Below are positions 5,166 to 62,892 of a stretch of DNA of 64,000 nt, one piece after another. The DNA comes from an uncultured Gammaproteobacteria bacterium. Lineage in GTDB: Bacteria > Patescibacteriota > Microgenomatia > Daviesbacterales > UBA10151. The position numbers and the translations under genes are program-made. Location: assembly GCA_964394855.1 (NCBI GenBank), contig CAYMZD010000004.1:8316-72315 (forward strand). The letters are read 5' to 3'. Numbering within the stretch: position 1 is the first letter of the stretch; each line of letters starts with the position of its first letter. The notes below the pieces were generated by a model. That model was given only the letters and a program-made list of their open reading frames with translations. It was not told where the DNA came from and did no database searches.

Positions 5166-6312
5166 AAGTTGAACCTTTGCCAAGCTCGGACTCAACCCAA
5201 ATTTTGCCATGGTGCATCTCCACCAGGGATTTAGTGATATAAAGGCCTAAACCCGTACCTTTGGTGCCGCCTTCCAAAGATCCTGAAACTCGGAAAAATT
5301 TACTAAAAAGTTCAGGTACGGCTTCTGGGGGAATGCCATGGCCGGTGTCTTGAACATGAGTGATCACATCCATCCCTTTTACTTCCACCCCCACCTTAAT
5401 CTTTCCTCCGGGTTCAGTATATTTGATGGCATTAGACAGCAAGTTGGCCAAAACTTCATTGATCCTGACTTTATCAACTTTCAGCCTGGGAATGGTTTGT
5501 GAAGGGGTGTCAAATATGAGTTCCACCCCTTTTTGCTTAGCTTGATCTTCAAAAAGCTTGATAGCTTCATTTACCAGCATTGGCCAATCCACAGCTTCCA
5601 AAGTAACATTTAAAACTCCTCTTTCGATGCGGGAGACTGAAAGCAAATTTTCCACCAATGTATTAAGTTGTTCGGTAGCAGCATTAGCATTTTGCAAAAG
5701 TTGTGTCTGATCAGCCGTTAAGCGATCTTTATTTTCTTCCAAGAAAACTGATAAATAACCCTTCATGGAGGTGAGGGGAGTGCGAAGTTCGTGGGCAGCC
5801 ATGGAGACAAAGTCAAACTTCATCCGTTCCAGCTTGACCTCTTGACTAACATCATGTAAGGTGAGGATACAACTTAAACTTTCGCCTACTGGTAGTTGAC
5901 TGGATATTAAATCAACTTGGGCTTCTTTCTTACCCACAATTTTTAAATCTTCTTTGGTAAAAATTACTCCTGCAAAACCTGGTCTGATTGGGCAATAGTT
6001 TAAAAATGTCAATTCAGTTTCTTTATCATAGAGTTTGATTATTTGATCAAATGGTTTCCCCCAAGCCTCAAGGGAGCCGAAGCCAGTGATGTTTTCCGCA
6101 GCTTTATTAAAAAGTGTGATGGTACGGTCTGCCCGAACCACAATGATGCCATCGGTGGTACCAGATAGGGCAACTAATAAATTGCTTTGCTGTGTGAGTA
6201 TTTGTTGCTTTTCCTGTTCGCTTTTTTGCCAAGATAAGCGCAGACTATCCAGCTCGGTATCCAGATCACTGTTTCGGGAAGAAAATAAATTTTTTAACCA
6301 CTGGGGCAGCAT
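5143..6312 (-). CDS. PAS-domain sensor histidine kinase (cytoplasmic, orphan)
   Basis: H-box HELRTPLTSMKGY; HATPase_c N/G1/G2 boxes (NLLSNAIKYT, DTGHGIP, GTGLGL); no adjacent response regulator. Confidence 0.85.
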   Translation of the reverse strand: MLPQWLKNLFSSRNSDLDTELDSLRLSWQKSEQEKQQILTQQSNLLVALSGTTDGIIVVRADRTITLFNKAAENITGFGSLEAWGKPFDQIIKLYDKETELTFLNYCPIRPGFAGVIFTKEDLKIVGKKEAQVDLISSQLPVGESLSCILTLHDVSQEVKLERMKFDFVSMAAHELRTPLTSMKGYLSVFLEENKDRLTADQTQLLQNANAATEQLNTLVENLLSVSRIERGVLNVTLEAVDWPMLVNEAIKLFEDQAKQKGVELIFDTPSQTIPRLKVDKVRINEVLANLLSNAIKYTEPGGKIKVGVEVKGMDVITHVQDTGHGIPPEAVPELFSKFFRVSGSLEGGTKGTGLGLYITKSLVEMHHGKIWVESELGKGSTFSFSLPV

Positions 6313-48058: not shown

Positions 48059-48346
48059 ATGAACCAAAAATATTGGCTTAATCAGTATTGTGTCTTTTTT
48101 CATCCCAAGTTAGATCAACAAAATAATTTTAATACTATTGTTAGAAATCCCGGTGGCGATTTTATTAAAGTAAATAAAAGCGGTTATTTTATCTTAAAAG
48201 CCATTAATGATAATCCTGGAATAAGTTTAGAAGGTGTCGCTAAGCAGATAAGAGCTACTTTAGATACTTCACAAATGTCCCTTAAAAATATTGAGCAGTT
48301 TGTAAGTTCAATGATGATTGGCGGTGTGATTGAAATCAATGAATAA
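48059..48346 (+). CDS. PqqD-like RiPP recognition element protein
   Basis: Size 95 aa; GDFIKVNKSGYFILKAINDNPGISLEGVAKQI is typical of PqqD/RRE; overlaps the next gene. Confidence 0.6.
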   Translation: MNQKYWLNQYCVFFHPKLDQQNNFNTIVRNPGGDFIKVNKSGYFILKAINDNPGISLEGVAKQIRATLDTSQMSLKNIEQFVSSMMIGGVIEINE

Positions 48347-49928
48347 ACATTTATTAATCCAAATAGACAAAAATAGCTGGAAATTAGATATAAATTTGCC
48401 CGATAGAAAGATACCGAGGAGTTTTAGGTTAGACCGAAATGGTTATATTTGTTTGGGATATTTTATTAGTTGGGAAGAGGATCTAACAGATCAGCAGATT
48501 TTTCAGTATTGTAAAGACAGAGACTTTGAAACGTTAGCCAATTTAACCGCCGATTTTTTAATAATATTTATCGATCAAAGTAATAAAAAAGTAACTGTAC
48601 TTAACAGCCAAACAGGAACCTTTCCATGTTATTTTGCTTTCATAGAGGACAATTTAATTATCTCAACCTCGTTTTACGAGATTAAAAAAAGGTTAAAATA
48701 TCTAACTTTAAATTTAAATCAAGCCTTTGATTATTTTATATTTGAATTTTTCAATTTTCCACAAGATGAAACGATATTAGAGGAGATAAACCAGGTTCCG
48801 CCAGCGGCGCTATTAGAAGTTAAACCGACTTTCGAATATAGAATTAGTTCTTTACTAAAGTACAGAGAATTTTATGGAGAAGGGGTTACACCTCTGGAAT
48901 CAACTGAAGATTTTACTAATCAAGTTGCTACTTTAATAGAAATAATCACTCGGGAACGCTTGACAAGACTTAAACAATTTTCTAAGGCTGGTGAATTAAG
49001 CTCTGGCTATGATAGTGGATTAGTAGCCTCCGCGATTGCTAATATAGATCCCCAAAGTGCTCAATTTTATACTTGGAATTCAGAGTTGGATCAACTTGAT
49101 AGCGATCCCGCTGTTGTAAAAAAGTTCGCTTTAAAACATGAATTAAAAGTTAATTTTTGGGAGAAAGATGCCTACTTTCCTTTTGCGGCAGAAGAAGACT
49201 TGAAGCTATCGGAAGATAATTTTTATCCAGCGACATTTGCTCAAAATTTAATTTTAGAATTCTACAAGTATCTTTCAGCGGAGGACAAAGAGGTTGTTTT
49301 TAACGGAACTGGAGGAGATGAAATTTATATGGTACATGAAATGGATGATTTATATCCATATTTTGTTCATCTTGATTATTTTGATACTGTTAGAGCTCTA
49401 GATTGGGATATAGATAGGATATTAACTTCAAAAGGTATAGATATTTTGATGGATAGAGATCGTTTTTCGAAAAGAAATCTCTATCCTGTGATTTTATCTA
49501 CGTCATCATTGGAAAAAAATTATTTCCCAATTTATTGGGAATATAATCTTTGGCCAGTATCTCCTTTAACAGATCCTAGATTAATTAAATTAGCTCGTAG
49601 AATGCCTAAAAAAGATCCAGAGCAATTGCGGAAAGAGCATATCTGGAAACACAGAACAGATATTTTCCTGCCCGAGCAACTAAAGCCCAAGCATAGATTT
49701 GGAACTTTAAATTTTGTTAAACAATATGTTAAAAAGAGAAAAGATTTTATTATTGAGGTACTTAGAAATTCAGTCTTGGCTAAAAAAGGTTTAATTAAGG
49801 CAGATGAAATTATAAAAAATCTACAAGAGGACAAATTTGATTTATATTCTGACAAAAATAATTTGTTTTTCCATAATGTAATTAGGCTTGAATATTTTAT
49901 CCAAAAAAATTTAGTTAAAGTTTTGTGA
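48330..49928 (+). CDS. Asparagine-synthetase-B-like amidotransferase without the N-terminal Cys nucleophile (lasso-cyclase-like)
   Basis: PP-loop SSGYDSGLVASAI (compare SGGLDSS); N-terminus MKSMNK lacks Cys2; TTG start; 532 aa. Confidence 0.7.
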   Translation: MKSMNKHLLIQIDKNSWKLDINLPDRKIPRSFRLDRNGYICLGYFISWEEDLTDQQIFQYCKDRDFETLANLTADFLIIFIDQSNKKVTVLNSQTGTFPCYFAFIEDNLIISTSFYEIKKRLKYLTLNLNQAFDYFIFEFFNFPQDETILEEINQVPPAALLEVKPTFEYRISSLLKYREFYGEGVTPLESTEDFTNQVATLIEIITRERLTRLKQFSKAGELSSGYDSGLVASAIANIDPQSAQFYTWNSELDQLDSDPAVVKKFALKHELKVNFWEKDAYFPFAAEEDLKLSEDNFYPATFAQNLILEFYKYLSAEDKEVVFNGTGGDEIYMVHEMDDLYPYFVHLDYFDTVRALDWDIDRILTSKGIDILMDRDRFSKRNLYPVILSTSSLEKNYFPIYWEYNLWPVSPLTDPRLIKLARRMPKKDPEQLRKEHIWKHRTDIFLPEQLKPKHRFGTLNFVKQYVKKRKDFIIEVLRNSVLAKKGLIKADEIIKNLQEDKFDLYSDKNNLFFHNVIRLEYFIQKNLVKVL

Positions 49929-49962
49929 TGTTGGTATGTGATTATTTTGCTAAAATAATCAG

Positions 49963-50084
49963 ATAAAATATTTTTTTACTATAAAAATATAAAAAGGGGA
50001 AGGGGACATTAAAATTTGAGGCTTGGGGATATTACCATCCATAATTTAATTATCAAATTTTTACGCTTTATTTGTCAAGTCAAG
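49963..50084. repeat. Direct repeat B, with a truncated 27-codon copy of the 47767 gene N-terminus on the minus strand
   Basis: Minus strand reads MDGNIPKPQILMSPSPFYIFIVKKYFI-stop. Confidence 0.85.
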
Positions 50085-50190
50085 GAAATTGACAAGCATG
50101 ATAGTTTTTGTTATATTCTTATTCATTCTGTCATTTTGTACAAATACAGTTTAGCCTTCTTTGTCTGGTCAATCAGACCATGGCGGAGGA

Positions 50191-50880
50191 TTAGCTCCGA
50201 TAACTAATATATTCACGAGCATTAATATCTAATCCTGAATCTAATATATATTTTTCTTGAGCGAAATCCTTAATTAAAACGGCTATTTTTTCAGGTAGAA
50301 TTCCTTGAAAATTTTTCATTTGGGTAGCAACTCCTCCAGATATGAAATTATATATTTTTAAAGTGGGAGTTTCCTTTGCCAAAGCTTGAGTAAAACCTCG
50401 CACACCCCATTTTGAAGCTCCATAAACTGATTGTTTTTCATATCCTCCTATACTGGCAGCACTTCCCATATTTATAATCATGTCTTGAATATATGGTAAG
50501 CAAGCAATAGTCATTTTAATCAATCCCTCCAAGTTAACTCTTAATTGATTTTCAACTTCATTATTAGTATGTTCTCTCGCCATTTTCCAAAAAATTACTC
50601 CGGAGTTATTAATTAAGATAGATATTTTTCCTAATTGTTTTATTATTTTAGCAACCGTCCTTTTTATAGAATCATTATTTGTGAGATCTAAATATAATAA
50701 CAAAACTTTAGGAGACCCCAATTCTAGGCACCTTCTTTTTACTAACTCTCCTTCTTTATATCCCTTATAATAAGTTAAAATCAGTATACTTTTTTGTTTG
50801 GCAAATTCATAAGCACATTCTTTCCCGATACCACGACTTGCTCCAGTTATAAACACAACTCTATTTTCTAAAGAATACAT
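50191..50880 (-). CDS. Short-chain dehydrogenase/reductase
   Basis: TGASRGIG cofactor site; YxxxK. Confidence 0.85.
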   Translation of the reverse strand: MYSLENRVVFITGASRGIGKECAYEFAKQKSILILTYYKGYKEGELVKRRCLELGSPKVLLLYLDLTNNDSIKRTVAKIIKQLGKISILINNSGVIFWKMAREHTNNEVENQLRVNLEGLIKMTIACLPYIQDMIINMGSAASIGGYEKQSVYGASKWGVRGFTQALAKETPTLKIYNFISGGVATQMKNFQGILPEKIAVLIKDFAQEKYILDSGLDINAREYISYRS

Positions 50881-50910
50881 ATCACTTCTTTCATATCAAC
50901 TTTATTAATA

Positions 50911-52155
50911 TTATCTTCTTGTTACAAAATCTAAAAATTGAGCATTAATTTTGGCTGGTGAAAATTTATCTAAGGTAATTGTTTGGGCTAATTCAGATAA
51001 GTACTGTCGGTATCGAGAAGGTGCAGAAATAAGATCTTTAATTTTTTGGGCTAACTGATAATAACCAATTTCATTTGGCTCTTGGGCTAGAAAACCAGCT
51101 TCACCAAATTGAGATATAGCCTCTCCTGATCCCCGTGAATTAAAGCCCATTAAAGGTAGCCCATGACTAGCAGCTTCGGTAAATACTAAACTTAGACCTT
51201 CTATGGTTGATGGCTGAAAGAAGAGATCAGCGTTTGTATATGCCTTACATAAAAAATCACCATCTGGAATACATCCTCTTAAATCAAACTGGCAATGAGA
51301 GAAACTTTTATTTAATTCTTCAGTTTGTTGAGAAAACCATTGACCATATGGATTATTAAGATCGCCCACAACAACGAACTTTGCTAGACTATCACTACCT
51401 TTCAATATACGGTCTAGCATAACCGCAAGTTCCAATAATCTACCAGTACCTTTTTTAGCAGTAATACGACCTACACTTAAAATTGTATATTCGTTAGTAT
51501 CAGTTTTTCTTTGCTGGGGACATTTATGGCAAAATTCTCCAACTGGTGGAATAACTATCCATTCAGCGGGAGTATCTTTAGGAAAAACATTATCGAATGA
51601 GGATTTGATCGAATATGAATTAAATATAGCTGATGTATTTGTTATTCCTCTTTGAGATAACATCATATTTCTAAGGTGATATAAGGGGTGCGAAAGTAGA
51701 TAGATATAATAGTCCACCAAAGATGCGGAATCGACATCAGAAAGTCCTATGTCTAATGGACAATTCCATACGACAGTAGTTTTTCGTTTTTGCTTAGGTA
51801 TTAATCGATCGTAGACACTCATACCTATCATATCAGGGCTATATATTACTATATTACCCATGCTTTGCTGAACTAAAGAAGATAACTTTCGTTTAGAAGC
51901 TGGGGTAGGCAGTTTTTCAAGAATTGGTATGCTCGCTATGGTATGGAGAGGCTCATAAGCTAAAGAAGGATAAGGTGATGGAGGGTGAACTAAAGATTTT
52001 CGTCTTTTGATTGGATAAGCCCATATTACTTCTTGATTGCCTTGACTTGCGGCAAATTCCGCGAATGAAGCAACTGTTCGTTGTATACCTCCTGTAGTAT
52101 TTGGGGCATATTCAGATGTAAGTAGCAGGCTATTTTTCGCTTCTTCCTTTAGCAT
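50911..52155 (-). CDS. GT4-like glycosyltransferase
   Basis: C-terminal GT-B region with FTEAASHGLPLMGF. Confidence 0.7.
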   Translation of the reverse strand: MLKEEAKNSLLLTSEYAPNTTGGIQRTVASFAEFAASQGNQEVIWAYPIKRRKSLVHPPSPYPSLAYEPLHTIASIPILEKLPTPASKRKLSSLVQQSMGNIVIYSPDMIGMSVYDRLIPKQKRKTTVVWNCPLDIGLSDVDSASLVDYYIYLLSHPLYHLRNMMLSQRGITNTSAIFNSYSIKSSFDNVFPKDTPAEWIVIPPVGEFCHKCPQQRKTDTNEYTILSVGRITAKKGTGRLLELAVMLDRILKGSDSLAKFVVVGDLNNPYGQWFSQQTEELNKSFSHCQFDLRGCIPDGDFLCKAYTNADLFFQPSTIEGLSLVFTEAASHGLPLMGFNSRGSGEAISQFGEAGFLAQEPNEIGYYQLAQKIKDLISAPSRYRQYLSELAQTITLDKFSPAKINAQFLDFVTRR

Positions 52156-52682
52156 TATATTTTAAATGTTTTTGTTGTTAATTGGTTTTTTATAAGAAAA
52201 AATAATAGCCACGCTAAAGTTAAAGGATTTTTTAGTTGATTAAGTAATTCAGACCATTTATTGATGAAGTCAAGTCGAATGATTATTTTATTATTAAATG
52301 CAAGAAAATCGTTTATTTTTTTTGTATCATATAATGAAATAGGAGTAGGTAAATTATAAAAATTAGCCCATTTAATATTCCTCACTTCTGAAGATTCCTT
52401 TAGTGTAGTGGGGTTAATTAGTTGCCCAGAGAATAAATATTTCTTTATATTACCATTTTTAGCATAATACTTGGCAATTAAATTAACTTTTTTTATCTTT
52501 ATTCCAGTTTCTTCATAAAGTTCTCTTAAAGCTGCAACTTTAGGAGATTCTTTTTTATTAATATGCCCTCCAGGGATAACCCAGAAAGGAACGTCTTGTC
52601 TCTGGGTTAAAAGAATTCTTCCTTCTCTATTGATAATAATTGTATGAACACTTTGATCCTTATAAGTATTTTGCTGTCTCAT
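52155..52682 (-). CDS. NUDIX hydrolase
   Basis: Nudix box GGHINKKESPKVAALRELYEETGI. Confidence 0.8.
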   Translation of the reverse strand: MRQQNTYKDQSVHTIIINREGRILLTQRQDVPFWVIPGGHINKKESPKVAALRELYEETGIKIKKVNLIAKYYAKNGNIKKYLFSGQLINPTTLKESSEVRNIKWANFYNLPTPISLYDTKKINDFLAFNNKIIIRLDFINKWSELLNQLKNPLTLAWLLFFLIKNQLTTKTFKI

Positions 52683-53841
52683 TTATTGTCTTGCTAAAAT
52701 AGTAAAAGTATTTTAACAGATCTTTGTTAGTTATTTCTAAAAAAAGGGTTTCATAATCAAGCTCTCTTTTTAATATTTTTAATTTAAAGTTGAACTCTTG
52801 GTTACGGCACAAGCGGTCTTTAGAAATAGTTATTTTTCTAGACTTATTTTTTGGATGAGTAAAAATCAGATCAGGTAATCTTGAGCAGTAGTAGTCTGAA
52901 CAATATAAGCTTAACAGGAGAGCCTTCAACTTTCTTTCCATCTTGGAAAAGTTGTACTTATTAATTGTACTCTGTAATGCACTATTGCTCCATTTATAAT
53001 CTTCTTCATGCCCCACATGGACTTTGGTTAAATTTAGTACAGGAATGTTTGATTCACCTTGAAAGTAATCGTCCAGAAAGCAATCATTTATTCCTTCTTT
53101 TATTAAGGAGTCTTGCAATAACTTCCACCTCGTGATTGATGAAACATCATTCTTGTTATTTTTTGTATAAGCATTTAAGACAAGTGCTTCTAAGTCAATT
53201 CGAGCTAATAAAGCTTTACCTTCTGCAAATTTTGAATAATTTTCTTTAATTGCAGAGATCACAGTGTCTATAGTGGTATCTTCCCTTAAATATTGATGGA
53301 AACAATCGCGGTATTCAAACTTACGTCGAGATAAATATGCTTTGATACTATGTTGCTGATTAGTAATATTAAAAATTGGTGGATACTTTTCCCATGATAA
53401 GTTATCAATCTTAATACGTGTTTCACCTAGTATAATTCCATCCCAGACTTTAGTTATTTCTGTGAGTATTTTTTTAGGAAACAGATCTGCTTCAGATGAA
53501 TAGCCGATATTGGTTAGCTTGTCTTTACTAATTAAATCATTAATAATCTGCTTACCTAGCTTTGCTTCAAGTAAGAACTTAGAGGGGAAACATTGAGGAA
53601 TAGTATGAGTATGAAATGGTAAAAGAAACTTTATTTTGGGATGATTAATTAGTTGGTAAAAACATTCAGGATTCCAAGCTTTCAAAAGTAATAAATCTTC
53701 AGTGCAAATTGAAACTGTTGAATTAATAACTAAGGAATTTAAAATTAATGGAAGATACTTTTCTATATAAAGAGTCCGCTGGGAAAATGATAATGAAAGA
53801 TGGTTAAAATTAATATGGTAAAGAACGGATAGATTAATCAT
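52660..53841 (-). CDS. Hypothetical protein (393 aa), possibly a carbohydrate-active fold
   Basis: Operon member with an overlapping start/stop; HTHTIP motif. Confidence 0.4.
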   Translation of the reverse strand: MINLSVLYHINFNHLSLSFSQRTLYIEKYLPLILNSLVINSTVSICTEDLLLLKAWNPECFYQLINHPKIKFLLPFHTHTIPQCFPSKFLLEAKLGKQIINDLISKDKLTNIGYSSEADLFPKKILTEITKVWDGIILGETRIKIDNLSWEKYPPIFNITNQQHSIKAYLSRRKFEYRDCFHQYLREDTTIDTVISAIKENYSKFAEGKALLARIDLEALVLNAYTKNNKNDVSSITRWKLLQDSLIKEGINDCFLDDYFQGESNIPVLNLTKVHVGHEEDYKWSNSALQSTINKYNFSKMERKLKALLLSLYCSDYYCSRLPDLIFTHPKNKSRKITISKDRLCRNQEFNFKLKILKRELDYETLFLEITNKDLLKYFYYFSKTINETAKYL

Positions 53842-54865
53842 GAGTTAATAATTGTTGCACTAAGTTTTTTTGTTTATATTCTGCCCATTTTTGAAACCAT
53901 GAAAGATCTTGTGGAGAAACTACTTCTGCTAGTTGAGCAATTGAGTCTCGGTAACAGTCAGCAATTCTTGCTAATGTGTTTCGTAGAACATTACTTTTTG
54001 TAACTAATTCATTAATTACCATTGAATCGGTCGGTGTAATTGTTCCTTTTCCAAAGAATGCTAATAGGGTACTTCTATCAGTAGGAGATAGCAAATTATA
54101 TAGATAGGATAAAGGTATGGTTGGTACACCTCGTCGAATGTCACTAAATGAACGACCATAAAGGTCCCCATCTGTAAAGTCTTTCAGGTCATTGATTAAT
54201 TGTCCTCCTTGATTAAATAATCTTAGACCAGAGATTGCTAATTTAAATTTTTGATCTTCTTGTGATTCTGTCCACATCGCACTTAGCTGAAATGTTCCGT
54301 GAAAATCACATCTATTTTCGTAGTTACGCGTAATTATTCCTACTGGTGTTTCTAAATCCATAAGTCGATGTTCCCTAAGTGATCTAAGTCCGATCTGAAT
54401 ATATCTTGTACATGAGCTTGCAACAGTAGAGTTACCAACTTTTTCTGTTAAGTATTCTAATAATTTTTTAGTTCCATTTAAGGCTGCTGCAAGGGTTTGC
54501 TGTTTACCAAATTTTACCCAGCAGGTTTGAAGGTTACCTCGCATTGTGTCCTCATCTTCAATATCATCAAACATTAAAGAAATTGCCCAAAGCATATCTG
54601 CGGAGACTGCTAATGGTTTTCGGATATCACTATTTATTCCTAAATTTTTGCCCAGTACTTCAACAAATAGTCCTTTTTCTTTATGTACATGGGTAACAAA
54701 ACTGTGGTGTATGGGAATTGCTGTTTCGGGTTCAAGTCGACCTAGAAACTCTTGAGTTAGGAATAAAAGTCCTCGGTTTTTCCATTCCTCAAAAACTGAT
54801 AAAACAGTTGGGGCATTAATTCTTGCGTAAATTGCAGTGTCTAATTCAGGGATCATAAAAGTCAT
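53834..54865 (-). CDS. Isoprenoid synthase-like protein (class I terpenoid synthase/prenyltransferase fold)
   Basis: First Asp-rich motif LMFDDIEDEDTMRGN; second acidic cluster NDLKDFTDGD. Confidence 0.45.
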   Translation of the reverse strand: MTFMIPELDTAIYARINAPTVLSVFEEWKNRGLLFLTQEFLGRLEPETAIPIHHSFVTHVHKEKGLFVEVLGKNLGINSDIRKPLAVSADMLWAISLMFDDIEDEDTMRGNLQTCWVKFGKQQTLAAALNGTKKLLEYLTEKVGNSTVASSCTRYIQIGLRSLREHRLMDLETPVGIITRNYENRCDFHGTFQLSAMWTESQEDQKFKLAISGLRLFNQGGQLINDLKDFTDGDLYGRSFSDIRRGVPTIPLSYLYNLLSPTDRSTLLAFFGKGTITPTDSMVINELVTKSNVLRNTLARIADCYRDSIAQLAEVVSPQDLSWFQKWAEYKQKNLVQQLLTHD

Positions 54866-54954
54866 TATATCAATCTATATCAGTACTTACCAACTTTATA
54901 AGAATTTTAACGAATATGAATAGGTAAATTACAAAGTTTTTTTAAGTAAATGAT

Positions 54955-55383
54955 TTATTCAAAAGCTTTATCTATGACTTCTTGTGATAAATACTTCCAA
55001 GATAATCTGGGATCAGTATAGTGTCTGGCTCTTTGAATTTTATCGTTCTTTATTTCAAATACTCCAACTATCGGAGTTCTAAATTTTTGGCCGGTTAATT
55101 CATCAATATAGCTTTCTACCCACTCAACTATTACTATACCTTTTTCCTCATCAGCTAAGATATTTTTAAACTGATACTCTCTGCCTTTAATTTGATAAAC
55201 TTTTTTGATGTTTTCTTCAACTGCCTTACCAGAAATAGTAGGAAAGGGCTGATCATTTTTATCTAAATACATTTCAATAACCTGATAGTTAGGGCTAATT
55301 AAGTTTAGCCCCTTTTTAGTATTACCCTCTTGTTCAGCTCTAAAAGAGTCCAGTACTAATTGAATCAATTGTTGTTTGTTCAT
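54955..55383 (-). CDS. SnoaL/NTF2-like protein
   Basis: Size 142 aa and a fold-typical pattern (limonene-epoxide-hydrolase/SnoaL-like). Confidence 0.5.
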   Translation of the reverse strand: MNKQQLIQLVLDSFRAEQEGNTKKGLNLISPNYQVIEMYLDKNDQPFPTISGKAVEENIKKVYQIKGREYQFKNILADEEKGIVIVEWVESYIDELTGQKFRTPIVGVFEIKNDKIQRARHYTDPRLSWKYLSQEVIDKAFE

Positions 55384-55461
55384 TAAATTAAGTTTATTGT
55401 TTAATTTTGCTTAAAGCAAATGAAGTTAAATTATTTCTTGAATTTAAGTCAAGATCTAATA

Positions 55462-56082
55462 TCAGCCAAATAACTGATCTAAACTTTTCTTTAGCAGTTT
55501 AATATTCTCTTTGTTCTTGGCTCTAGTAAAAAGAGTATTAAAATTTTTATAATAAGACTTAGCTTTTTCTAGTTTATTCTCTTCAAAATAAAAGTAGGTT
55601 AAATTAAAATAAATACTAATTTTTTCATCTAAATTTTTAGCTAATTTTTTAGCCTCCAGATAATAATTTTCTGCCTGTTTTGTTTCACCAATTCTTCTAT
55701 AAGCATTACCCAAATTTAAGCTAGATTGGTATCTATCTAGTCCTAGATTGCGAGCTTTTTGGTAAGATTTTATAGCTTTAAGGCCAGATTTAAGGTTTTG
55801 AAGATCTGTTTGGTGGTGATAAACATGCCCTAAATATGAATGGGTGATAGGATCTTTACTGCTCAACTTCAAAGATCTACTTAGATAATTAATCGCTTTA
55901 TTTTGCAAAAGCAACCTTTTCTTACCAGGAGACATAGCTGCTTTTTGATCATATAAAAGCCCCAATAAATTTAAAATTTGAGGTAGATTTTTTGAATATT
56001 CATTAAGTAACTTTTCTGCCTCATCATATTTTTGATTTGATATTAAATCTTTTATTTTTTCAAGATTTTTATCATCATTCAT
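55462..56082 (-). CDS. TPR-repeat protein
   Basis: Repeated A/Y/L TPR pattern. Confidence 0.7.
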   Translation of the reverse strand: MNDDKNLEKIKDLISNQKYDEAEKLLNEYSKNLPQILNLLGLLYDQKAAMSPGKKRLLLQNKAINYLSRSLKLSSKDPITHSYLGHVYHHQTDLQNLKSGLKAIKSYQKARNLGLDRYQSSLNLGNAYRRIGETKQAENYYLEAKKLAKNLDEKISIYFNLTYFYFEENKLEKAKSYYKNFNTLFTRAKNKENIKLLKKSLDQLFG

Positions 56083-56164: not shown

Positions 56165-56764
56165 TTGTATGGTAGAATCATGACTATGATTAAATTAAAT
56201 GCTAAACAGCTGCGAGGGGGTCCCACTTCGCTAAAGCTTCGCGGACTAAAGTCAAAAGTCAAACATAATGAGATATATATTGTTTTGGATAATGTCTTGG
56301 ATACATATAATATTGGCTCTATTTTCAGATTGGCAGATGCCGTTTCTGCCAAAAAGATCTATCTTTGTGGGGAAACTGCCACCCCTCCTAATCATCGGAT
56401 TAAAAAAGCCTCCATTAATACCACCGAATGGGTAGAGTGGGAATATTGCGAATCTGCGGTAGAGGCAATATCTAAGATCACCTCCGAGGTGAAAAAAATG
56501 CGATTACACCTCGGAGGTGGAGGATCAATACAAATTATAGCAATAGAACAGAGCCCTAAATCAATCCATTATAACAAATTTGAGTACAAATTGCCTATAT
56601 GTTTGGTAGTAGGACATGAAACAAATGGAGTATCCAAAGAAGTGCTGGAAAAAGTGGATGGGATAGTGGAACTGCCCATGTTTGGGATAAATAAATCCTT
56701 AAATGTTATGGTTTCTTTGGGAATAGTGCTTTACAAGGTACTGGAAAAAAAGTTAGATTTGTGA
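56165..56764 (+). CDS. SpoU/TrmH-class RNA 2'-O-methyltransferase
   Basis: Motifs NIGSIFRLADA and LVVGHETNGVS...SLNVMVSLGIVLY. Confidence 0.8.
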   Translation: MYGRIMTMIKLNAKQLRGGPTSLKLRGLKSKVKHNEIYIVLDNVLDTYNIGSIFRLADAVSAKKIYLCGETATPPNHRIKKASINTTEWVEWEYCESAVEAISKITSEVKKMRLHLGGGGSIQIIAIEQSPKSIHYNKFEYKLPICLVVGHETNGVSKEVLEKVDGIVELPMFGINKSLNVMVSLGIVLYKVLEKKLDL

Positions 56765-56770
56765 TATGTT

Positions 56771-58162
56771 GTGCCCAAGATGTTCGGAGAAAAAGATTCC
56801 GAAGAAGTGCTCTTTCCTTATAGAAAAATTTATTATCAACTTAAAGAAGGTATTTATTTCGTTCCCGGAGTCAAAGGAACTGCAATCTGTGATACTACCA
56901 CCGGTAATGTTTATAGCATCAACGAAGCTGGTAAAAGAGCTCTCTTGGGGCAACAAGAAGAACCTGATTACCTACAACAACTAAAAGAGCTTGGCCTTGT
57001 CGATGGCCAACCACAGCCGATTGAACTACAAAAACCTAAATTCGCTCTTGATTTTGTCTGGTTTGAACTAACTGAAGATTGTAATGAACGTTGTGCCCAC
57101 TGTTATGCCAACAGCATGCCGCCAAGATTGCGTAGACTTCTACCTATGGCTCAAACTACAGGATACGAAACAAATGGTCGGGTTAAACTGACTGCAGAAA
57201 GGTGGCGCGAGTTAATCCGCGAATCATACGATCTGGGTTGCCGTGAGTGTCAGTTTATTGGCGGCGAACCATTTTTCTGGCATGGTGAAAATAAAGAAAC
57301 TATGCTTGATTTGGCAACTTATGCTAAGGGGATGGGTTATCTTTCAATAGAGATTTTTACCAATGCCACACTGATTCATCCAGAAGACATTCAAAGGATT
57401 AAGGAGTTAGATTTGCATATTGCGGTTTCTCTCTACTCTGACGATGAAGAGGTTCACGACACTATTACCAAAACACCCGGCAGTTTTGCCAGAACCACGC
57501 AGGCTCTTGAACGGCTCAAAGAAGCTGGCGTCCAAACCCGTGTTGAGACTGTACTCATGCGTCCCAATCAACACACTGTTGAAAGCACCAACCAATTTAT
57601 CCAACAAATGGGTTTTAACCATCGCTCACCGGATGTTTTGCGACCCAAAGGACGCGGTGACAATCTTGAACTTATACCAGATCCGGAATCACTTGTTAAA
57701 TATGGTTTAATTCTGGGACCGGATTTTTCTGCTTCGCCTGATTTTTTCCAGAGAAGCGTAGATGGACATAACTGTTTGGCTGGAAAAATTACCATAACTG
57801 ATAATGGAAACGTATTACCCTGTATTTTCTCAAGAGAGCAAATTGTAGGAAATGTTAGACAGAAATCACTTGAGGAAGTACTTGAAGATAAAATCCAACA
57901 AATTTGGGGTTTAACCAAAGATGATGTTTTGGTTTGTCAGGATTGCCAGTATCGTTACGTTTGTTTTGATTGTCGCCCGCTTTCTGAAGGCGCTACCAGT
58001 GGTAACGGGAAATACGCAAGCGCTCCTTATCCCCGCTGTACCCACAACCCCTATGAGGATCGTTGGGGTAACGGAACTTGGAAGCTGGATGGAAACGGCC
58101 AACCATATTACGATGAAACATTAAAACCAATTATAGAAAAAGTAAGAAGTGAGGGGAGGTGA
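56771..58162 (+). CDS. Radical SAM / SPASM-domain peptide maturase with N-terminal RRE-like domain
   Basis: Motif CNERCAHC (CxxxCxxC); a C-terminal Cys cluster (CLAGK...LPC...CQDCQYRYVCFDCRP); about 100 aa of PqqD-like N-terminal extension. Confidence 0.85.
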   Translation: MPKMFGEKDSEEVLFPYRKIYYQLKEGIYFVPGVKGTAICDTTTGNVYSINEAGKRALLGQQEEPDYLQQLKELGLVDGQPQPIELQKPKFALDFVWFELTEDCNERCAHCYANSMPPRLRRLLPMAQTTGYETNGRVKLTAERWRELIRESYDLGCRECQFIGGEPFFWHGENKETMLDLATYAKGMGYLSIEIFTNATLIHPEDIQRIKELDLHIAVSLYSDDEEVHDTITKTPGSFARTTQALERLKEAGVQTRVETVLMRPNQHTVESTNQFIQQMGFNHRSPDVLRPKGRGDNLELIPDPESLVKYGLILGPDFSASPDFFQRSVDGHNCLAGKITITDNGNVLPCIFSREQIVGNVRQKSLEEVLEDKIQQIWGLTKDDVLVCQDCQYRYVCFDCRPLSEGATSGNGKYASAPYPRCTHNPYEDRWGNGTWKLDGNGQPYYDETLKPIIEKVRSEGR

Positions 58163-58389
58163 GAAAAATAACAGAAAATAGTGAAGTCTTAGCACAACAA
58201 GCGAGATCGGCCGTGACACAGGATGGTTCTGGACCCACGATAGAATTGGTTACGTCTGGGGCTAGAAAAATGGAGGCAAGCAAGATTATCTGTCCTCCAA
58301 ATTGTATTGTGATTTGTAATCCATCGTGTGAACCGACAATCTTTAAACCACCACCGCCCAAACCGCCACCACCAAAGCCACCAAACTAG
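58159..58389 (+). CDS. Candidate RiPP precursor peptide (76 aa; core IICPPNCIVICNPSCEPTIF plus tail KPPPPKPPPPKPPN)
   Basis: GTG start overlaps the rSAM TGA stop (GTGA) with GAGGGGAGG directly upstream, suggesting translational coupling; Cx3Cx3Cx3C core. Confidence 0.5.
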   Translation: MRKITENSEVLAQQARSAVTQDGSGPTIELVTSGARKMEASKIICPPNCIVICNPSCEPTIFKPPPPKPPPPKPPN

Positions 58390-59282
58390 GATGGAATATG
58401 TAATATATTGGGAGTGGGAGCAATCAGAACTTGCGGCCAAGTTTTAGGGTACAAAGTCAGAATGATTTTGCTAAAAACAAAGGCGAAATCATGAGGGTAT
58501 TTGCTTGGCTCTAATACAGAATCTTCCTGATCAAGATTTTTAACTTCCTCGAGCTTTAGCAGATATTCTATTCTGTTGGCAGTAAATATATCAAGGTTTC
58601 GTTTATGGGTTGGCCAAAAAATCAGACTTGCCTGGTATTCGGCACAAAAAGCAAAAAGCTCGCTCATGCCTTCCATGCCTTCGAAAATAGGAAACCGGAT
58701 CAACACTTTTGGCAGTTTTCCACCCTTGGTATAAAGCCGTTTGGATATTCTAAGCAGCAGCAGGTTTTCCTTCTTATTGGAGTAATACCAAAGTTTGTGT
58801 TGATGCCAGTAAACATGTCCGAATTCATGGACAATAGTAGCCAGGTAACTTTCGCGGGTGATGTAGGGATTGTCTTTACGTCTTTTCTTTTGCAGTTCAA
58901 TAAAAGGTGTAAGTAATCCACCGCTTATTCGTGGAACTTCAAAGATAGTTTTTTGTTTTATTGACTTGGGAAGGTATTTTTCTATTTTTCTATCCAACAA
59001 TCCCGCACACCATCCAGATTGCCATTCATCTTTAATTTTTGATTTATGAGGAATTTTGTAAAGGTGGTATTGTTCCAAACCACATTCTAATGTATCTAAA
59101 CCATTTATTCCTTTTGGACTCCAAATGTAAATAAATTGACTATCATAGGAAATTACTACTACAGTTTTCTCGATTTTAGATTTATCCGCAAATATGAACT
59201 TTAGCTTTGGGTTCCAAACAAAGTTTATTCCCTCCTCTATTACCAGAAGATCTTGTTTTGTTGCTTTGTAGTCTTCAAACAT
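58386..59282 (-). CDS. HExxH zinc metallopeptidase-like protein
   Basis: Motif ATIVHEFGHVYWH; convergent with, and overlapping, the precursor peptide's 3' end. Confidence 0.55.
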   Translation of the reverse strand: MFEDYKATKQDLLVIEEGINFVWNPKLKFIFADKSKIEKTVVVISYDSQFIYIWSPKGINGLDTLECGLEQYHLYKIPHKSKIKDEWQSGWCAGLLDRKIEKYLPKSIKQKTIFEVPRISGGLLTPFIELQKKRRKDNPYITRESYLATIVHEFGHVYWHQHKLWYYSNKKENLLLLRISKRLYTKGGKLPKVLIRFPIFEGMEGMSELFAFCAEYQASLIFWPTHKRNLDIFTANRIEYLLKLEEVKNLDQEDSVLEPSKYPHDFAFVFSKIILTLYPKTWPQVLIAPTPNILHIPS

Positions 59283-59355: not shown

Positions 59356-60144
59356 ATGACAGGTCTTTTGAATTTAGTTTCCTTAAGACTTTGGCAAATT
59401 GATTTTACCAAACCTTTGGTTTATTTCGATCTTTTTTTAGCCTCATTTTTGATCATAGCTTTTCTGGTTTATATTCGTCGCTTCCCAGTTTTTAGAGTAT
59501 TTTTAGGACTACTGTTTTTGCTGGTGGCTGCCTCTTTATTTTTTCTAACTGGTTTTATTTTTACTGCTTTGGTTTTTGGTGTGGTCAGTAATTTAATCTT
59601 AATTGCCATGCCCCTTATTTTTGCCCCGGAAATTCGTCATTACCTAGAAAAATTGGGGCGTTTCCCTTTTTTACATATTCCAGCAGTGGGTGAGAAACGG
59701 ACGAAAGATCAATTAATTCGTAACCTGGTAGGAGCGATATTTGATCTGGCAGCACACAGCAAAGGAGCAATCGTGGTATTGCAGCGGCAAACAGGCTTGG
59801 GTGAAATTGTGGAGACAGGAGCAATCATTGATGCCAGATTGGGAACAAAGCTACTGCAGAATATCTTTTTCCCCAAAAGTCCTTTGCATGATGGGGCAGT
59901 GGTCATCAAAGATGGTCGGATTTTGGCTGCAGGTTGTATCATACCTCTTCATCCTGAAGTCAAGCTTGATCCACCTTTTGGCTTAAGACATCGGGCTGGG
60001 CTTTCCATCACCAAAGACACAGATGCCATCAGCATTATGGTGTCAGAACAAAGAGGAGAGGTCTCTCTGGCTGAAAATGGGAAACTCAATATAAATTTAA
60101 ATAGAGCTGAATTAACTTCAAACTTGCAAAAATTATGGCAATAA
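59356..60144 (+). CDS. cdaA: Diadenylate cyclase CdaA
   Basis: Three N-terminal TM helices plus a DAC domain (HDGAVVI, GLRHRAG). Confidence 0.85.
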   Translation: MTGLLNLVSLRLWQIDFTKPLVYFDLFLASFLIIAFLVYIRRFPVFRVFLGLLFLLVAASLFFLTGFIFTALVFGVVSNLILIAMPLIFAPEIRHYLEKLGRFPFLHIPAVGEKRTKDQLIRNLVGAIFDLAAHSKGAIVVLQRQTGLGEIVETGAIIDARLGTKLLQNIFFPKSPLHDGAVVIKDGRILAAGCIIPLHPEVKLDPPFGLRHRAGLSITKDTDAISIMVSEQRGEVSLAENGKLNINLNRAELTSNLQKLWQ

Positions 60145-60160
60145 GTTAAAATCCGCCCAT

Positions 60161-60697
60161 ATGGTTAAGGAAATTAGTTCTTCTGCCGTGGCAGTGCGAC
60201 GTGTGGAGATGACAGTGGTGACAGGAATTCCCCAATCAAGCATACCAAGCAGTAATTATCAGGTTTCCAAACAAGCGGCAGAACTGGTGGCGGGAACAAG
60301 CATACCCCAAACTGCTGTGGCCAAGGCTTTACATGAAGGGCATGGTTATCCCTTAGCTAAAATTTCCACCAATCAGCCATTTAAAGTGAGGGAAGACTCT
60401 CCTGTTAGCGCCGTAGGAGTGCACCAGGGGACAGGGGCGGTGGTGTTATATGAGGTCCAAAGGGCAGAGGCTCCTTTATTGAGTACTCCCCAGGAAGAGT
60501 TAGCTTTGGTTCAAAGGCCACAAACCTTGGTAGCTAAAGGTGGAGAAGGTGAAGAAAAAATGGTAAGTCTGGTGGTGGTGATGCCAGATCAGCCAGAAAA
60601 ATTAGCGGCAGCCAATGAAGTTAGTGCAGTAACAGAAGAAGCAGATAGAGATAGAGAAAGATCAGCATGGGCAGAGGCTATCTTAAGAAAATATTAG
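60161..60697 (+). CDS. Hypothetical protein; compositionally atypical (GC-rich)
   Basis: Long ORF with A/V/G-rich product immediately downstream of cdaA (where a CdaR-like partner would be expected); no YbbR motif recognised. Confidence 0.35.
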   Translation: MVKEISSSAVAVRRVEMTVVTGIPQSSIPSSNYQVSKQAAELVAGTSIPQTAVAKALHEGHGYPLAKISTNQPFKVREDSPVSAVGVHQGTGAVVLYEVQRAEAPLLSTPQEELALVQRPQTLVAKGGEGEEKMVSLVVVMPDQPEKLAAANEVSAVTEEADRDRERSAWAEAILRKY

Positions 60698-60880: not shown

Positions 60881-60974
60881 GGTGAGCGAAGTCGTACATT
60901 CGATAAACTCAGTACGACACTGAGTACAATCGAAGTGTCGAACCATTGACTCCGAAGAAGTGGTGGGAGATTCT

Positions 60975-62461
<1,487 letters not shown>

Positions 62462-62728: not shown

Positions 62729-62801
62729 GGCCACGTACCCAAGTAGCTAAGGGAACGGTCTGCAAAACCGTGATTCGTCGGTGCAAGTCCGATCGTGGCC
62801 T
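62729..62801 (+). tRNA. Putative tRNA-Cys(GCA), atypical
   Basis: Acceptor GGCCACG/CGTGGCC, anticodon stem ACGGT/ACCGT, loop CTGCAAA, U73. The D-arm has 3 bp and lacks GG, and the T-loop reads TGCAAGT. Confidence 0.45.
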
Positions 62802-62817
62802 CCCAAGCAAATAACAT

Positions 62818-62892
62818 GGGCATTTAGTTCAGCGGTAGAACGCTTCTCTGATAAAGAAGAGGTGGATGGTTCAACTCCATCAGTGCCCACCA
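62818..62892 (+). tRNA. tRNA-Ile(GAU)
   Basis: Acceptor GGGCATT/AGTGCCC, loop CTGATAA, T-arm GATGG-TTCAACT-CCATC, A73, CCA encoded. Confidence 0.85.

Follow-up and report, generated by a model that had tools for sequence, protein, structure and literature searches.

The window, i.e., the whole 64-kb stretch of DNA that was analyzed, belongs to a member of the Daviesbacteria (candidate phyla radiation, CPR), and four of its open reading frames (ORFs) are considered here. A SpoU methyltransferase ORF (56165-56764, + strand) is followed by a gene for a radical SAM/SPASM peptide maturase (56771..58162, + strand), which spans 463 aa from a GTG start and is annotated by NCBI as a 460-aa protein with an ATG start at 56780. 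Its TGA stop overlaps the GTG of a small precursor peptide ORF (58159..58389, + strand) of 76 aa, or 73 aa when counted from an ATA codon. The fourth ORF (58386..59282, - strand; 298 aa) encodes an HExxH gluzincin-fold zinc metallopeptidase, a candidate leader peptidase, and is convergent with the 76-aa ORF, the stop codons overlapping. When the ORF coordinates were rechecked, the positions given in an earlier sequence-only reading of this DNA proved exact and the overlaps were as described there. The GC3 of the cassette (0.34) is typical of the window and lends no support to a recent horizontal acquisition. Promoter and terminator scans gave counts near those of shuffled controls.

The SpoU gene is unrelated to the cassette. 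Its product is a SpoU methylase (PF00588, SpoU_methylase; 107 bits, 8e-31 in Pfam), tblastn detected no such gene beside the radical SAM homologues in the first 29 loci, and SpoU is missing from the families co-occurring with the radical SAM gene across all loci; it is never a conserved neighbor. The sequence-only reading had proposed either a resistance gene or an unrelated housekeeping gene. We retain an unrelated gene and reject a resistance function, since conserved linkage with the radical SAM gene is missing. Neither a linked exporter nor an immunity gene occurs among the neighbor families of the radical SAM loci, and no ATP-grasp gene was found among their neighbors.

The radical SAM enzyme and the peptidase

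The enzyme is a member of the radical SAM superfamily and of its SPASM-domain subfamily. It matches PF04055 (Radical_SAM) with 75.9 bits (cutoff 29.5; 5e-21) and PF13186 (SPASM) with 29.3 bits (cutoff 21.5; 1e-6) in Pfam. The CX3CX2C radical SAM cluster motif (C104/C108/C111; 57080..57103, + strand) is invariant in 117 homologues. SPASM domains follow the pattern CX9-15GX4C ... CX2CX5CX2-3C ... C, with two auxiliary clusters. In the SPASM domain found here by Pfam and alignment (57773..58039, + strand), the seven cysteines (C335, G346-x4-C351, C389-x2-C392-x5-C398-x2-C401, and C423) are all invariant in the 117 homologues. Both the radical SAM site and a seven-Cys SPASM-like cluster had been recognized from the letters, and the family alignment bears them out. 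Exactly seven cysteines are invariant besides those of the CX3CX2C motif, with no eighth in the C-terminal half of the 117 homologues. It could be that D288, an invariant Asp, or some residue other than Cys serves as the remaining ligand of the auxiliary cluster. A phmmer comparison of the SPASM region with solved SPASM enzymes for cluster ligands returned chance matches only.

No NCBIfam or Pfam family model reached threshold for the enzyme as a specific maturase, and no equivalog reached its cutoff. An orthologue of a non-RiPP SPASM enzyme, which the sequence-only reading had allowed for, is not indicated by the models: the equivalogs for PqqE (TIGR02109; 46.8 bits, cutoff 381), AhbD (86.8 bits, cutoff 500), NirJ2 (80.5 bits, cutoff 500), and anSME all score below cutoff. 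The AF2 model of the enzyme is of moderate quality (pLDDT 63), and a fold search places SuiB, PqqE, EpeE, and TigE among its structural neighbors, which include C-C cyclases, epimerases, and cyclopropyl synthases.

Ahead of the radical SAM motif lies an N-terminal domain of about 75 aa (aa 20-95; 56828..57055, + strand) with G33, D41, N51, and L71 invariant across the family. Family conservation and the AF2 model suggest a candidate leader-binding (RRE-like) domain. RREs are PqqD-like, leader-binding domains with a three-stranded sheet and three helices, and the model predicts four strands with two helices after them (pLDDT 58-84). Residues 1-100 gave no match in Pfam at E<=10, a profile of 18 N-terminal domains retrieved chance matches only from all PDB sequences, and the fold search with the enzyme yielded no RRE assignment for this domain.

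The peptidase carries an HExxH zinc-binding motif (H152, E153, H156; 58815..58829, - strand) that is invariant in 24 homologues, alongside an equally invariant E208 as candidate Glu ligand. The protein has no Pfam match, and a profile of its family found chance matches only among PDB sequences. The structure model, placed by fold search, predicts a gluzincin metallopeptidase, i.e., an HExxH motif with a downstream Glu on a thermolysin-like catalytic fold. The gene, described earlier as metallopeptidase-like, convergent, and slightly overlapping, is co-conserved in 49 of 71 loci. M1-family gluzincins include leader peptidases of class III lanthipeptides. We rejected membership of peptidase family M1: besides the lack of a Pfam match, no GxMEN motif is present, and 51 residues separate H156 from the candidate E208, whereas M1 enzymes have about 18 between the second His and the Glu. 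Compared with M1 and thermolysin-like gluzincins, the protein is only 298 aa long and without the M1 N- and C-terminal domains.

The precursor peptide and its family

The 76-aa ORF represents a genuine gene, far beyond chance, because it is conserved beside radical SAM genes, evolves with a dN/dS of 0.30-0.40 against its relatives (13-19 synonymous-only codons per comparison), and is the sole CxP-dense ORF of the window, a scan of the 64 kb revealing no further precursors. A homologous small ORF directly follows the radical SAM gene in about 80 of 90 testable related loci, and most of the others carry one elsewhere in the locus. The conservation that the sequence-only reading had wished to see checked is present, and the ORF is under purifying selection. 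The precursor is missing from the GenBank record; it is called in a Logan assembly and not in GCA_016198205.1. Annotation-based surveys would therefore miss it here and in similar records. The peptide fits none of the NCBIfam or Pfam models; the earlier reading had recognized neither its tail nor its Cys spacing from any described family. NCBIfam precursor models gave no match to 21 precursors at E<=1.

The leader contains the recognition motif PTIELVT (58234..58254, + strand), identified from the precursor alignment, close relatives, and a window scan; the family consensus is E-P-x-I-x-L-V-T/S, with GPTIELVT in the window copy. A linker of about 12 residues leads to the core CPPNCIVICNPSCEPTIF (58291..58344, + strand), in which three of the four cysteines lie in C-x-P triplets. 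The core is followed by the Pro/Lys tail KPPPPKPPPPKPPN (58345..58386, + strand), the C-terminus IICPPNCIVICNPSCEPTIFKPPPPKPPPPKPPN being as given earlier. A tail of this kind is common to a subgroup of precursors, and each of the 32 loci concerned also has the HExxH gene.

Across the precursor cores, which contain 25-28% Pro, 588 of 608 cysteines (97%) stand within C-x-P triplets. Position +3 after the Cys is enriched in D/N/T/S and depleted in Pro, with Ala at 10%. Arg at +4 amounts to 4%, equal to background.

The enzyme clade comprises about 350 clusters at 50% identity, and CxP partners are kept down to about 28% enzyme identity. The pairing of enzyme and CxP ORF is maintained in at least 100 loci despite changes in gene order. 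No CxP ORF was found in the locus DNA examined near one homologue of 515 aa that adjoins an ABC transporter (37% identity), nor near two others (33% identity). The host range is centered on CPR Microgenomates, many of which keep all three genes with enzymes more than 50% identical. The locus has the makeup of a RiPP cassette: the precursor is short, its leader is conserved and its core variable, and it is encoded beside the enzyme and co-inherited with it. We found no description of the CxP family in the literature on radical SAM/SPASM, RiPP, and ranthipeptide systems in CPR, Patescibacteria, or Microgenomates. No BGCs were reported for the Patescibacteria MAGs in a paper on ranthipeptides and Patescibacteria (PMC11613949).

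Proposed maturation and alternative readings

We are highly confident that the three genes form a self-contained cassette for a peptide that is made on the ribosome and modified afterward, and the overall picture of a radical SAM maturase with a Cys-rich peptide substrate, as first drawn from the letters, is supported. As to how this cassette operates, we lean, with modest confidence, toward leader-guided thioether cross-linking followed by leader removal. The precursor leader, with its strand-like motif GPTIELVT, would dock on the N-terminal domain of the enzyme, which would then act on each CxP cysteine of the core. A 5'-deoxyadenosyl radical would remove a hydrogen atom from a neighboring residue, most likely the D/N/T/S/A at +3, and the Cys sulfur, held on an auxiliary Fe-S cluster with only three Cys ligands, would join that carbon. 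Small Pro-containing rings of the sacti-/ranthipeptide type would result, and the convergent cytoplasmic gluzincin peptidase would then remove or trim the leader.

The data show what the genes are, that the three are conserved together, that the CxP rule holds, and that selection is purifying; leader docking, the thioether chemistry with its acceptor, the task of the peptidase, and the biological function we infer, and for thioether formation at the CxP cysteines taken by itself we consider the case evenly balanced. In sactipeptides the Cys sulfur is bonded to the alpha carbon of an acceptor residue, in ranthipeptides to the beta or gamma carbon. The seven-Cys SPASM domain and the D/N/T/S residues at +3 lend indirect support to the sacti-/ranthipeptide class. 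Pro at +2 is nearly invariant, which brings to mind the C-x-P in the sulfatase motif used by anSME, and to our knowledge it has no precedent among sacti-/ranthipeptide sites. The conservation of position +3 is too loose to establish it as the acceptor, with Ala at 10% and with Ile at +3 of C49 in the window copy.

A bolder reading, which we regard as tentative, takes the C-x-P triplet as the recognition and reaction unit of an undescribed radical SAM transformation. The family would then be a new RiPP class and the main peptide-modification system of the Microgenomates, with branches in Chloroflexota and Clostridia and versions decorating proteins of 130-210 aa. Its products might be proline-locked four-residue Cys-to-(i+3) thioether micro-rings or contain a cross-link involving proline itself. 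Such a class would more likely serve the physiology of the cell or its dealings with a host than act as an antibiotic, because no exporter or immunity gene is linked.

The same cassette might perform another chemistry on the triplet, namely a Cys-to-Pro or C-C cross-link within C-x-P, epimerization, or proline modification. We hold this to be rather doubtful, even though Pro at +2 (97%) is stricter than any acceptor candidate at +3. SPASM enzymes catalyze many reaction types, and the structural neighbors named above represent several of them. The enrichment of D/N/T/S and depletion of Pro at +3 fit known thioether acceptors, the seven-Cys SPASM domain argues for thiolate binding, and we know of no precedent for proline as a cross-link partner. 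A cross-link within C-x-P would be the sulfur analogue of three-residue cyclophane motifs.

The state of the window copy itself bears on whether the cassette is active here. A Shine-Dalgarno sequence (GGAGG, 58155-58159) is retained upstream of the ATA codon (58168-58170; 58155..58170 in all, + strand) in the aligned start regions, and six relatives have an ATG 8 nt after GGAGG at this very position. The ancestral start is therefore probably not the GTG at 58159, whose position overlaps the Shine-Dalgarno sequence. In addition, this copy has lost a CxP site: of the 72 cysteines in the 15 closest precursors, C49 (CIV) alone lies outside a CxP triplet. With ATA in place of the ancestral ATG and a CxP site gone, this copy may be weakly expressed. 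It is nevertheless unlikely that the copy is decaying or silent in a family functional elsewhere. The bacterial code permits initiation at ATA, albeit weakly, and three codons before it stands a GTG in the same frame; the ORF is intact, as are the enzyme and the peptidase; the sequence is identical in independent assemblies; and the cassette has a GC3 typical of the genome.

We consider it quite improbable that the enzyme acts like an anSME, in which case oxidation of every C-x-P cysteine would yield formylglycine, or a product derived from a thioaldehyde, and hence a poly-aldehyde peptide. Arg at +4 is no more frequent than background, the anSME model reaches 52 bits (cutoff 349), and anSME auxiliary clusters are fully Cys-ligated, whereas this family has only seven invariant cysteines. 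A leader peptide and an N-terminal domain are moreover traits of RiPP maturases, not of anSME. Least probable is that the small ORF is an unmodified metal-binding or redox peptide and that the enzyme works on a substrate that is no peptide or is unlinked: a high Cys content could bind metals, but precursors with one or two cysteines cannot form a metal site, the widely kept pairing speaks against it, a conserved leader set apart from the core is a RiPP hallmark, and no non-RiPP SPASM equivalog matches.

Under the thioether reading as under its alternatives, the strict Cys-x-Pro rule offers a clear experimental handle, leading either to another thioether peptide or to a new radical SAM reaction. 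The genomes of CPR bacteria are tiny, and these organisms are commonly portrayed as almost without secondary metabolism; even so, many Microgenomates keep the three-gene cassette. The family supplies a new leader motif, a compact and uncharacterized family of zinc peptidases, and some 90 natural variants of the core, all of use for genome mining and peptide engineering.

Comparison with known systems

CPR graspetide loci are RiPP-type, and a zincin peptidase and a SPASM enzyme can be among their genes (Makarova et al., 2022; PMC8939145). Their central component is an ATP-grasp ligase and their cores are T/D-rich; we reject a link to them because no ATP-grasp gene adjoins the cassette. The SPASM region of the enzyme resembles TIGR04193 (80 bits, below the cutoff of 175).

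The anSMEs share with our enzyme the radical SAM/SPASM architecture, a similar structure, and a target Cys in C-x-P(-x-R). They differ in acting on folded sulfatases without a leader, in requiring an Arg at +4 that is absent here, and in having eight Cys ligands for the auxiliary clusters instead of seven. An assignment to anSME (TIGR03942; 51.7 bits, cutoff 349) was rejected accordingly, the motif (C/S)-x-(P/A)-x-R not being matched. Sactipeptide maturases (SkfB, AlbA, StsB) are likewise distant, the enzyme scoring well short of the cutoffs for these families (625 and 850 bits; 92.5 bits against 625 for the StsB family, NF045574), and sactipeptide cores are neither Pro-rich nor subject to a C-x-P rule.

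The sequence-only reading had called the arrangement typical of sactipeptide, ranthipeptide, and SCIFF systems. This stands for the cassette architecture; at the level of families, no SCIFF or StsB model is reached: the 21 precursors match no NCBIfam precursor model (E<=1), and no maturase equivalog attains its cutoff. The C-x-P rule has not been described for SCIFFs, the leader motif differs, and the cassette adds Pro-rich cores, a dedicated co-conserved gluzincin peptidase, and hosts centered on CPR Microgenomates. The auxiliary cluster of CteB has an open site (PMC8326336). The SCIFF/ranthipeptide systems CteA-CteB, Tte1186a, and freyrasin (PapA-PapB) resemble our locus in their short Cys-rich precursor beside a single radical SAM/SPASM maturase with an N-terminal extension, and in being widespread in a single bacterial lineage with no exporter linked to them. 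Their known acceptors, Asp, Asn, and Thr, are residues enriched at +3 in the cores described here.

Genomic setting and identity of the enzyme

The locus comprises four open reading frames, all exactly where the sequence-only reading had placed them. A SpoU methyltransferase gene (56165-56764, +) is followed by the radical SAM (rSAM) gene (56771-58162, +; 463 aa) and by a small ORF of 76 aa (58159-58389, +), the GTG of which overlaps the TGA of the rSAM gene. The fourth, encoding a 298-aa HExxH protein (58386-59282, -), is convergent and its stop overlaps the stop of the small ORF. In NCBI record GCA_016198205.1 (Candidatus Daviesbacteria MAG, contig JACQIZ010000003.1) the exact rSAM protein is annotated as ‘radical SAM protein’ and the exact HExxH protein as ‘hypothetical protein’. 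The 76-aa ORF is unannotated there, whereas a gene caller identified it in a Logan assembly from that population. The three cassette genes (rSAM, small ORF and HExxH) have a GC3 of 0.34-0.35, which is typical of the window and thus gives no sign of recent acquisition.

Directly upstream of the SpoU and rSAM genes lies a gene run (48330-56082, including a polyprenyl synthase, a SnoaL-like protein and a TPR protein) with a GC3 of 0.20-0.27 versus 0.34-0.41 elsewhere in the window, possibly a fast-evolving island or one of foreign origin. Beyond the HExxH gene, a DAC-domain (diadenylate cyclase, CdaA-like) membrane protein and a 178-aa ORF of high GC (0.47) without Pfam match (59356-60697; both annotated in the NCBI record) are found just upstream of the 16S rRNA gene (60973-62460). 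The latter is followed by two tRNAs (62729-62892), identified by ARAGORN as tRNA-Cys(GCA) and tRNA-Ile(GAT). The usual rRNA spacer pair is Ile and Ala, making a Cys tRNA unusual at this site.

The enzyme matches the Pfam models Radical_SAM (5e-21) and SPASM (1e-6). The Cys residues invariant in 117 homologues are C104, C108 and C111 (CX3CX2C) and exactly seven in the C-terminal half, without an eighth: C335, C351 (preceded by GX4), C389-x2-C392-x5-C398-x2-C401 and C423. These form a complete SPASM motif, which bears out the radical SAM site and seven-Cys cluster initially described. None of the NCBIfam families comes near its curated cutoff: the enzyme scores 92 bits against StsB (cutoff 625), 87 against AhbD (500), 80 against TIGR04193 (175) and 62 against AlbA (850). 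It is therefore an orthologue of no named SPASM enzyme. Orthology to a non-RiPP SPASM enzyme, previously considered, was rejected with 52 bits for anSME (cutoff 349) and 47 bits for PqqE (cutoff 381). In a fold comparison, the best structural match is a sactisynthase.

The precursor and its Cys-x-Pro core

We gathered 109 loci with enzyme relatives from species-representative genomes and metagenomes. A small ORF with at least two C-x-P triplets is located immediately downstream of the rSAM gene in 79 of the 90 loci that extend at least 200 nt past the rSAM stop. Most apparent exceptions have a CxP ORF elsewhere in the locus, namely upstream of the rSAM gene (L006, divergent; L077), at the contig end (L048) or on the other strand downstream (L083). 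Locus L083 contains two such ORFs (2620-3190, -), possibly tandem precursors, and is the only multi-precursor locus seen. Compared with the near-identical L016, the precursor of L053 (~5359-5530) is divided between two reading frames, by either a frameshift or a sequencing error. No further ORF of this kind was found in the 64-kb window. Codon comparison of the small ORF with L030, L092 and L084 gave a dN/dS of 0.30-0.40, with 13-19 synonymous-only codons per comparison. The small ORF is thus a real gene, kept beside homologous rSAM genes in relatives.

The precursors have the leader consensus E-P-x-I-x-L-V-T/S in common, represented in the window by GPTIELVT (aa 25-32). Common to the 15 closest precursors are MKENSEVLAQQARSA...GSGPTIELVTP, 8-13 spacer residues, the core IICPPNC(L/I)PxCxPSCxPTIF and a Pro/Lys/Arg tail. 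Among 608 Cys in 90 non-identical cores, 588 (96.7%) are followed by x-Pro, versus 25% Pro among core residues. Position +1 after the Cys is variable. Position +3 is enriched in D/N/T/S/E (55% versus 24% background; D 17%, N 16%, A 10%, T 10%, S 9%) and nearly devoid of Pro (1.4% versus 25%). Cys-Cys spacing peaks at 4 and 6, and the number of Cys per precursor ranges from one (L033, CLPNN) or two (L004) up to 12-16. Such a range speaks for CxP sites that are modified independently of one another and against a disulfide fold or a fixed metal site.

Of the four core Cys in the window, three obey C-x-P; C49 (CIV) alone departs from it among 72 Cys of the 15 closest relatives, in which this position reads C(L/I)P. 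In six relatives, the precursor starts with ATG 8 nt after GGAGG. Alignment of the start regions shows that the window retains the GGAGG (58155-58159), yet has ATA (58168) instead of ATG; the Shine-Dalgarno sequence runs into the in-frame GTG (58159). Hence, translation would have to begin at ATA or GTG, both weak start codons; otherwise expression of this copy would be poor. The ATA and the lost Pro mildly hint at relaxed constraint in this genome, despite which the enzyme and peptidase genes are intact.

A scan across all 1.84 billion cluster representatives delimited an enzyme clade of 350 clusters (E<=1e-30), many aligning over residues 20-434, including the N-terminal domain. At 28-37% identity, most sampled members still have a CxP partner. 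L114 (32%) encodes MATIVCVTT... followed by eleven CxP triplets, mainly CxPD, L116 (31%) RPEFVNVS... followed by four CxP, and L115 (28%) a 33-aa peptide ending in CGPD. The partners in L096-L100 (34-37%; beginning with MTEEPTIELLEP in L096) are 76-176 aa long, with all Cys in CxP and a C-terminal amphipathic helix, while L113 (36%) encodes a 213-aa protein with tandem CNPCNPCSPD(Q/E)xRGGSQ repeats. No CxP ORF was found within the locus sequences of L117 (37%), L101 and L104 (both 33%). The motif thus travels with the enzyme clade despite altered gene order and architecture; no other evidence speaks as strongly for CxP as the site of enzyme action.

The partners of L096 (121-537), L098 (3305-3931) and L100 (3-278) lie directly upstream of the rSAM gene, have up to 16 Cys, all in CxP, and share the conserved helix ...KLTAEVEELKKKV. 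In L113 (1873-5828), the repeat protein, with a C-terminal domain of about 100 aa lacking a Pfam match, precedes three radical SAM genes, the first of them that of the clade.

By record titles, the cassette occurs in Daviesbacteria, Levybacteria, Woesebacteria, Roizmanbacteria, Amesbacteria, Curtissbacteria, other Microgenomates and WWE3, and outside CPR in two Chloroflexota and two gut Clostridia MAGs. Several TPA metagenome bins with a CPR-type cassette (L001, L006, L008, L010, L016, L021, L023) bear the titles ‘uncultured Gammaproteobacteria’ or ‘Pseudomonadales’ and are probably mislabelled.

The metallopeptidase and other neighbors

ORFs up to 3.5 kb away from the rSAM gene were compared all-against-all in 105 loci. 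The HExxH protein is the only co-occurring neighbor family, every other family being present in at most seven loci. Of the 71 loci that extend 1300 nt or more downstream, 49 have its gene; among those with an enzyme of at least 50% identity, the figure is 39/45. The convergent arrangement noticed in the window recurs in 47 of these 49, with the gene starting 200-436 nt past the rSAM match, directly after the precursor. It accompanies all 32 Pro/Lys(Arg)-tailed precursors versus 16/32 untailed ones, in loci that are not phylogenetically independent; strongly acidic CxPD-type cores mostly occur without it. In the two gut Clostridia loci (L020, 1731-2156; L022, 6556-7086), the peptidase is replaced after the precursor by a weak, below-cutoff match to GNAT acetyltransferases (Pfam E 4e-4 and 6e-3).

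Among the loci surveyed, SpoU, the TPR protein, the DAC-domain protein and other flanking genes were never conserved neighbors, and no linked transporter, immunity gene or second enzyme was found. SpoU, proposed earlier as a resistance or unrelated housekeeping gene, is separated from the rSAM gene by only 6-15 nt and may be co-transcribed with it in the window; its neighborhood nevertheless places it outside the cassette, in line with the unrelated role.

Proposed maturation and relation to known systems

The precursor, with its leader and core, is inherited together with an rSAM/SPASM enzyme and a protein of zinc peptidase fold, and what is conserved in the core is Cys-x-Pro. The CteA leader docks on the RRE of CteB (PMC8326336); similarly, the strand-like leader motif would dock on the N-terminal domain of the enzyme, which would then process each CxP site. 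Pro at +2 would enforce a turn bringing the +3 residue near the thiolate, and the peptidase would afterwards remove the leader. [quoted passage not shown] Another cross-link, involving the proline, seems rather unlikely. An anSME-like oxidation of the CxP cysteines is improbable because the full sulfatase motif CxPxR is absent, Arg at +4 being at background level (4%).

No described family was found to have the C-x-P rule, this leader motif, cores and tails rich in Pro, or a dedicated gluzincin peptidase. Full-text searches returned nothing on the cassette; they mostly did not cover subscription journals, and a mention in a large rSAM survey is possible. The only CPR RiPP study found describes graspetide loci (PMC8939145), which are ATP-grasp-centered and of a different type. 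In its way of working, the cassette comes closest to SCIFF/ranthipeptide and sactipeptide systems. As with SCIFFs, it lacks an exporter and is spread lineage-wide; the wide distribution of SCIFFs in Clostridia has been taken as an argument against an antibiotic role (PMC8326336). The cassette belongs to neither by membership, since no NCBIfam precursor model matches and no maturase equivalog cutoff is reached. Pairs of an rSAM/SPASM enzyme and a Cys-rich peptide are a familiar theme, so the cassette is no categorical surprise; it is a well-supported lead, readily open to testing, in organisms that are thought to be without such systems. It would represent a known kind, the rSAM/SPASM-modified Cys-rich peptide, with a new substrate motif and possibly a new chemistry.
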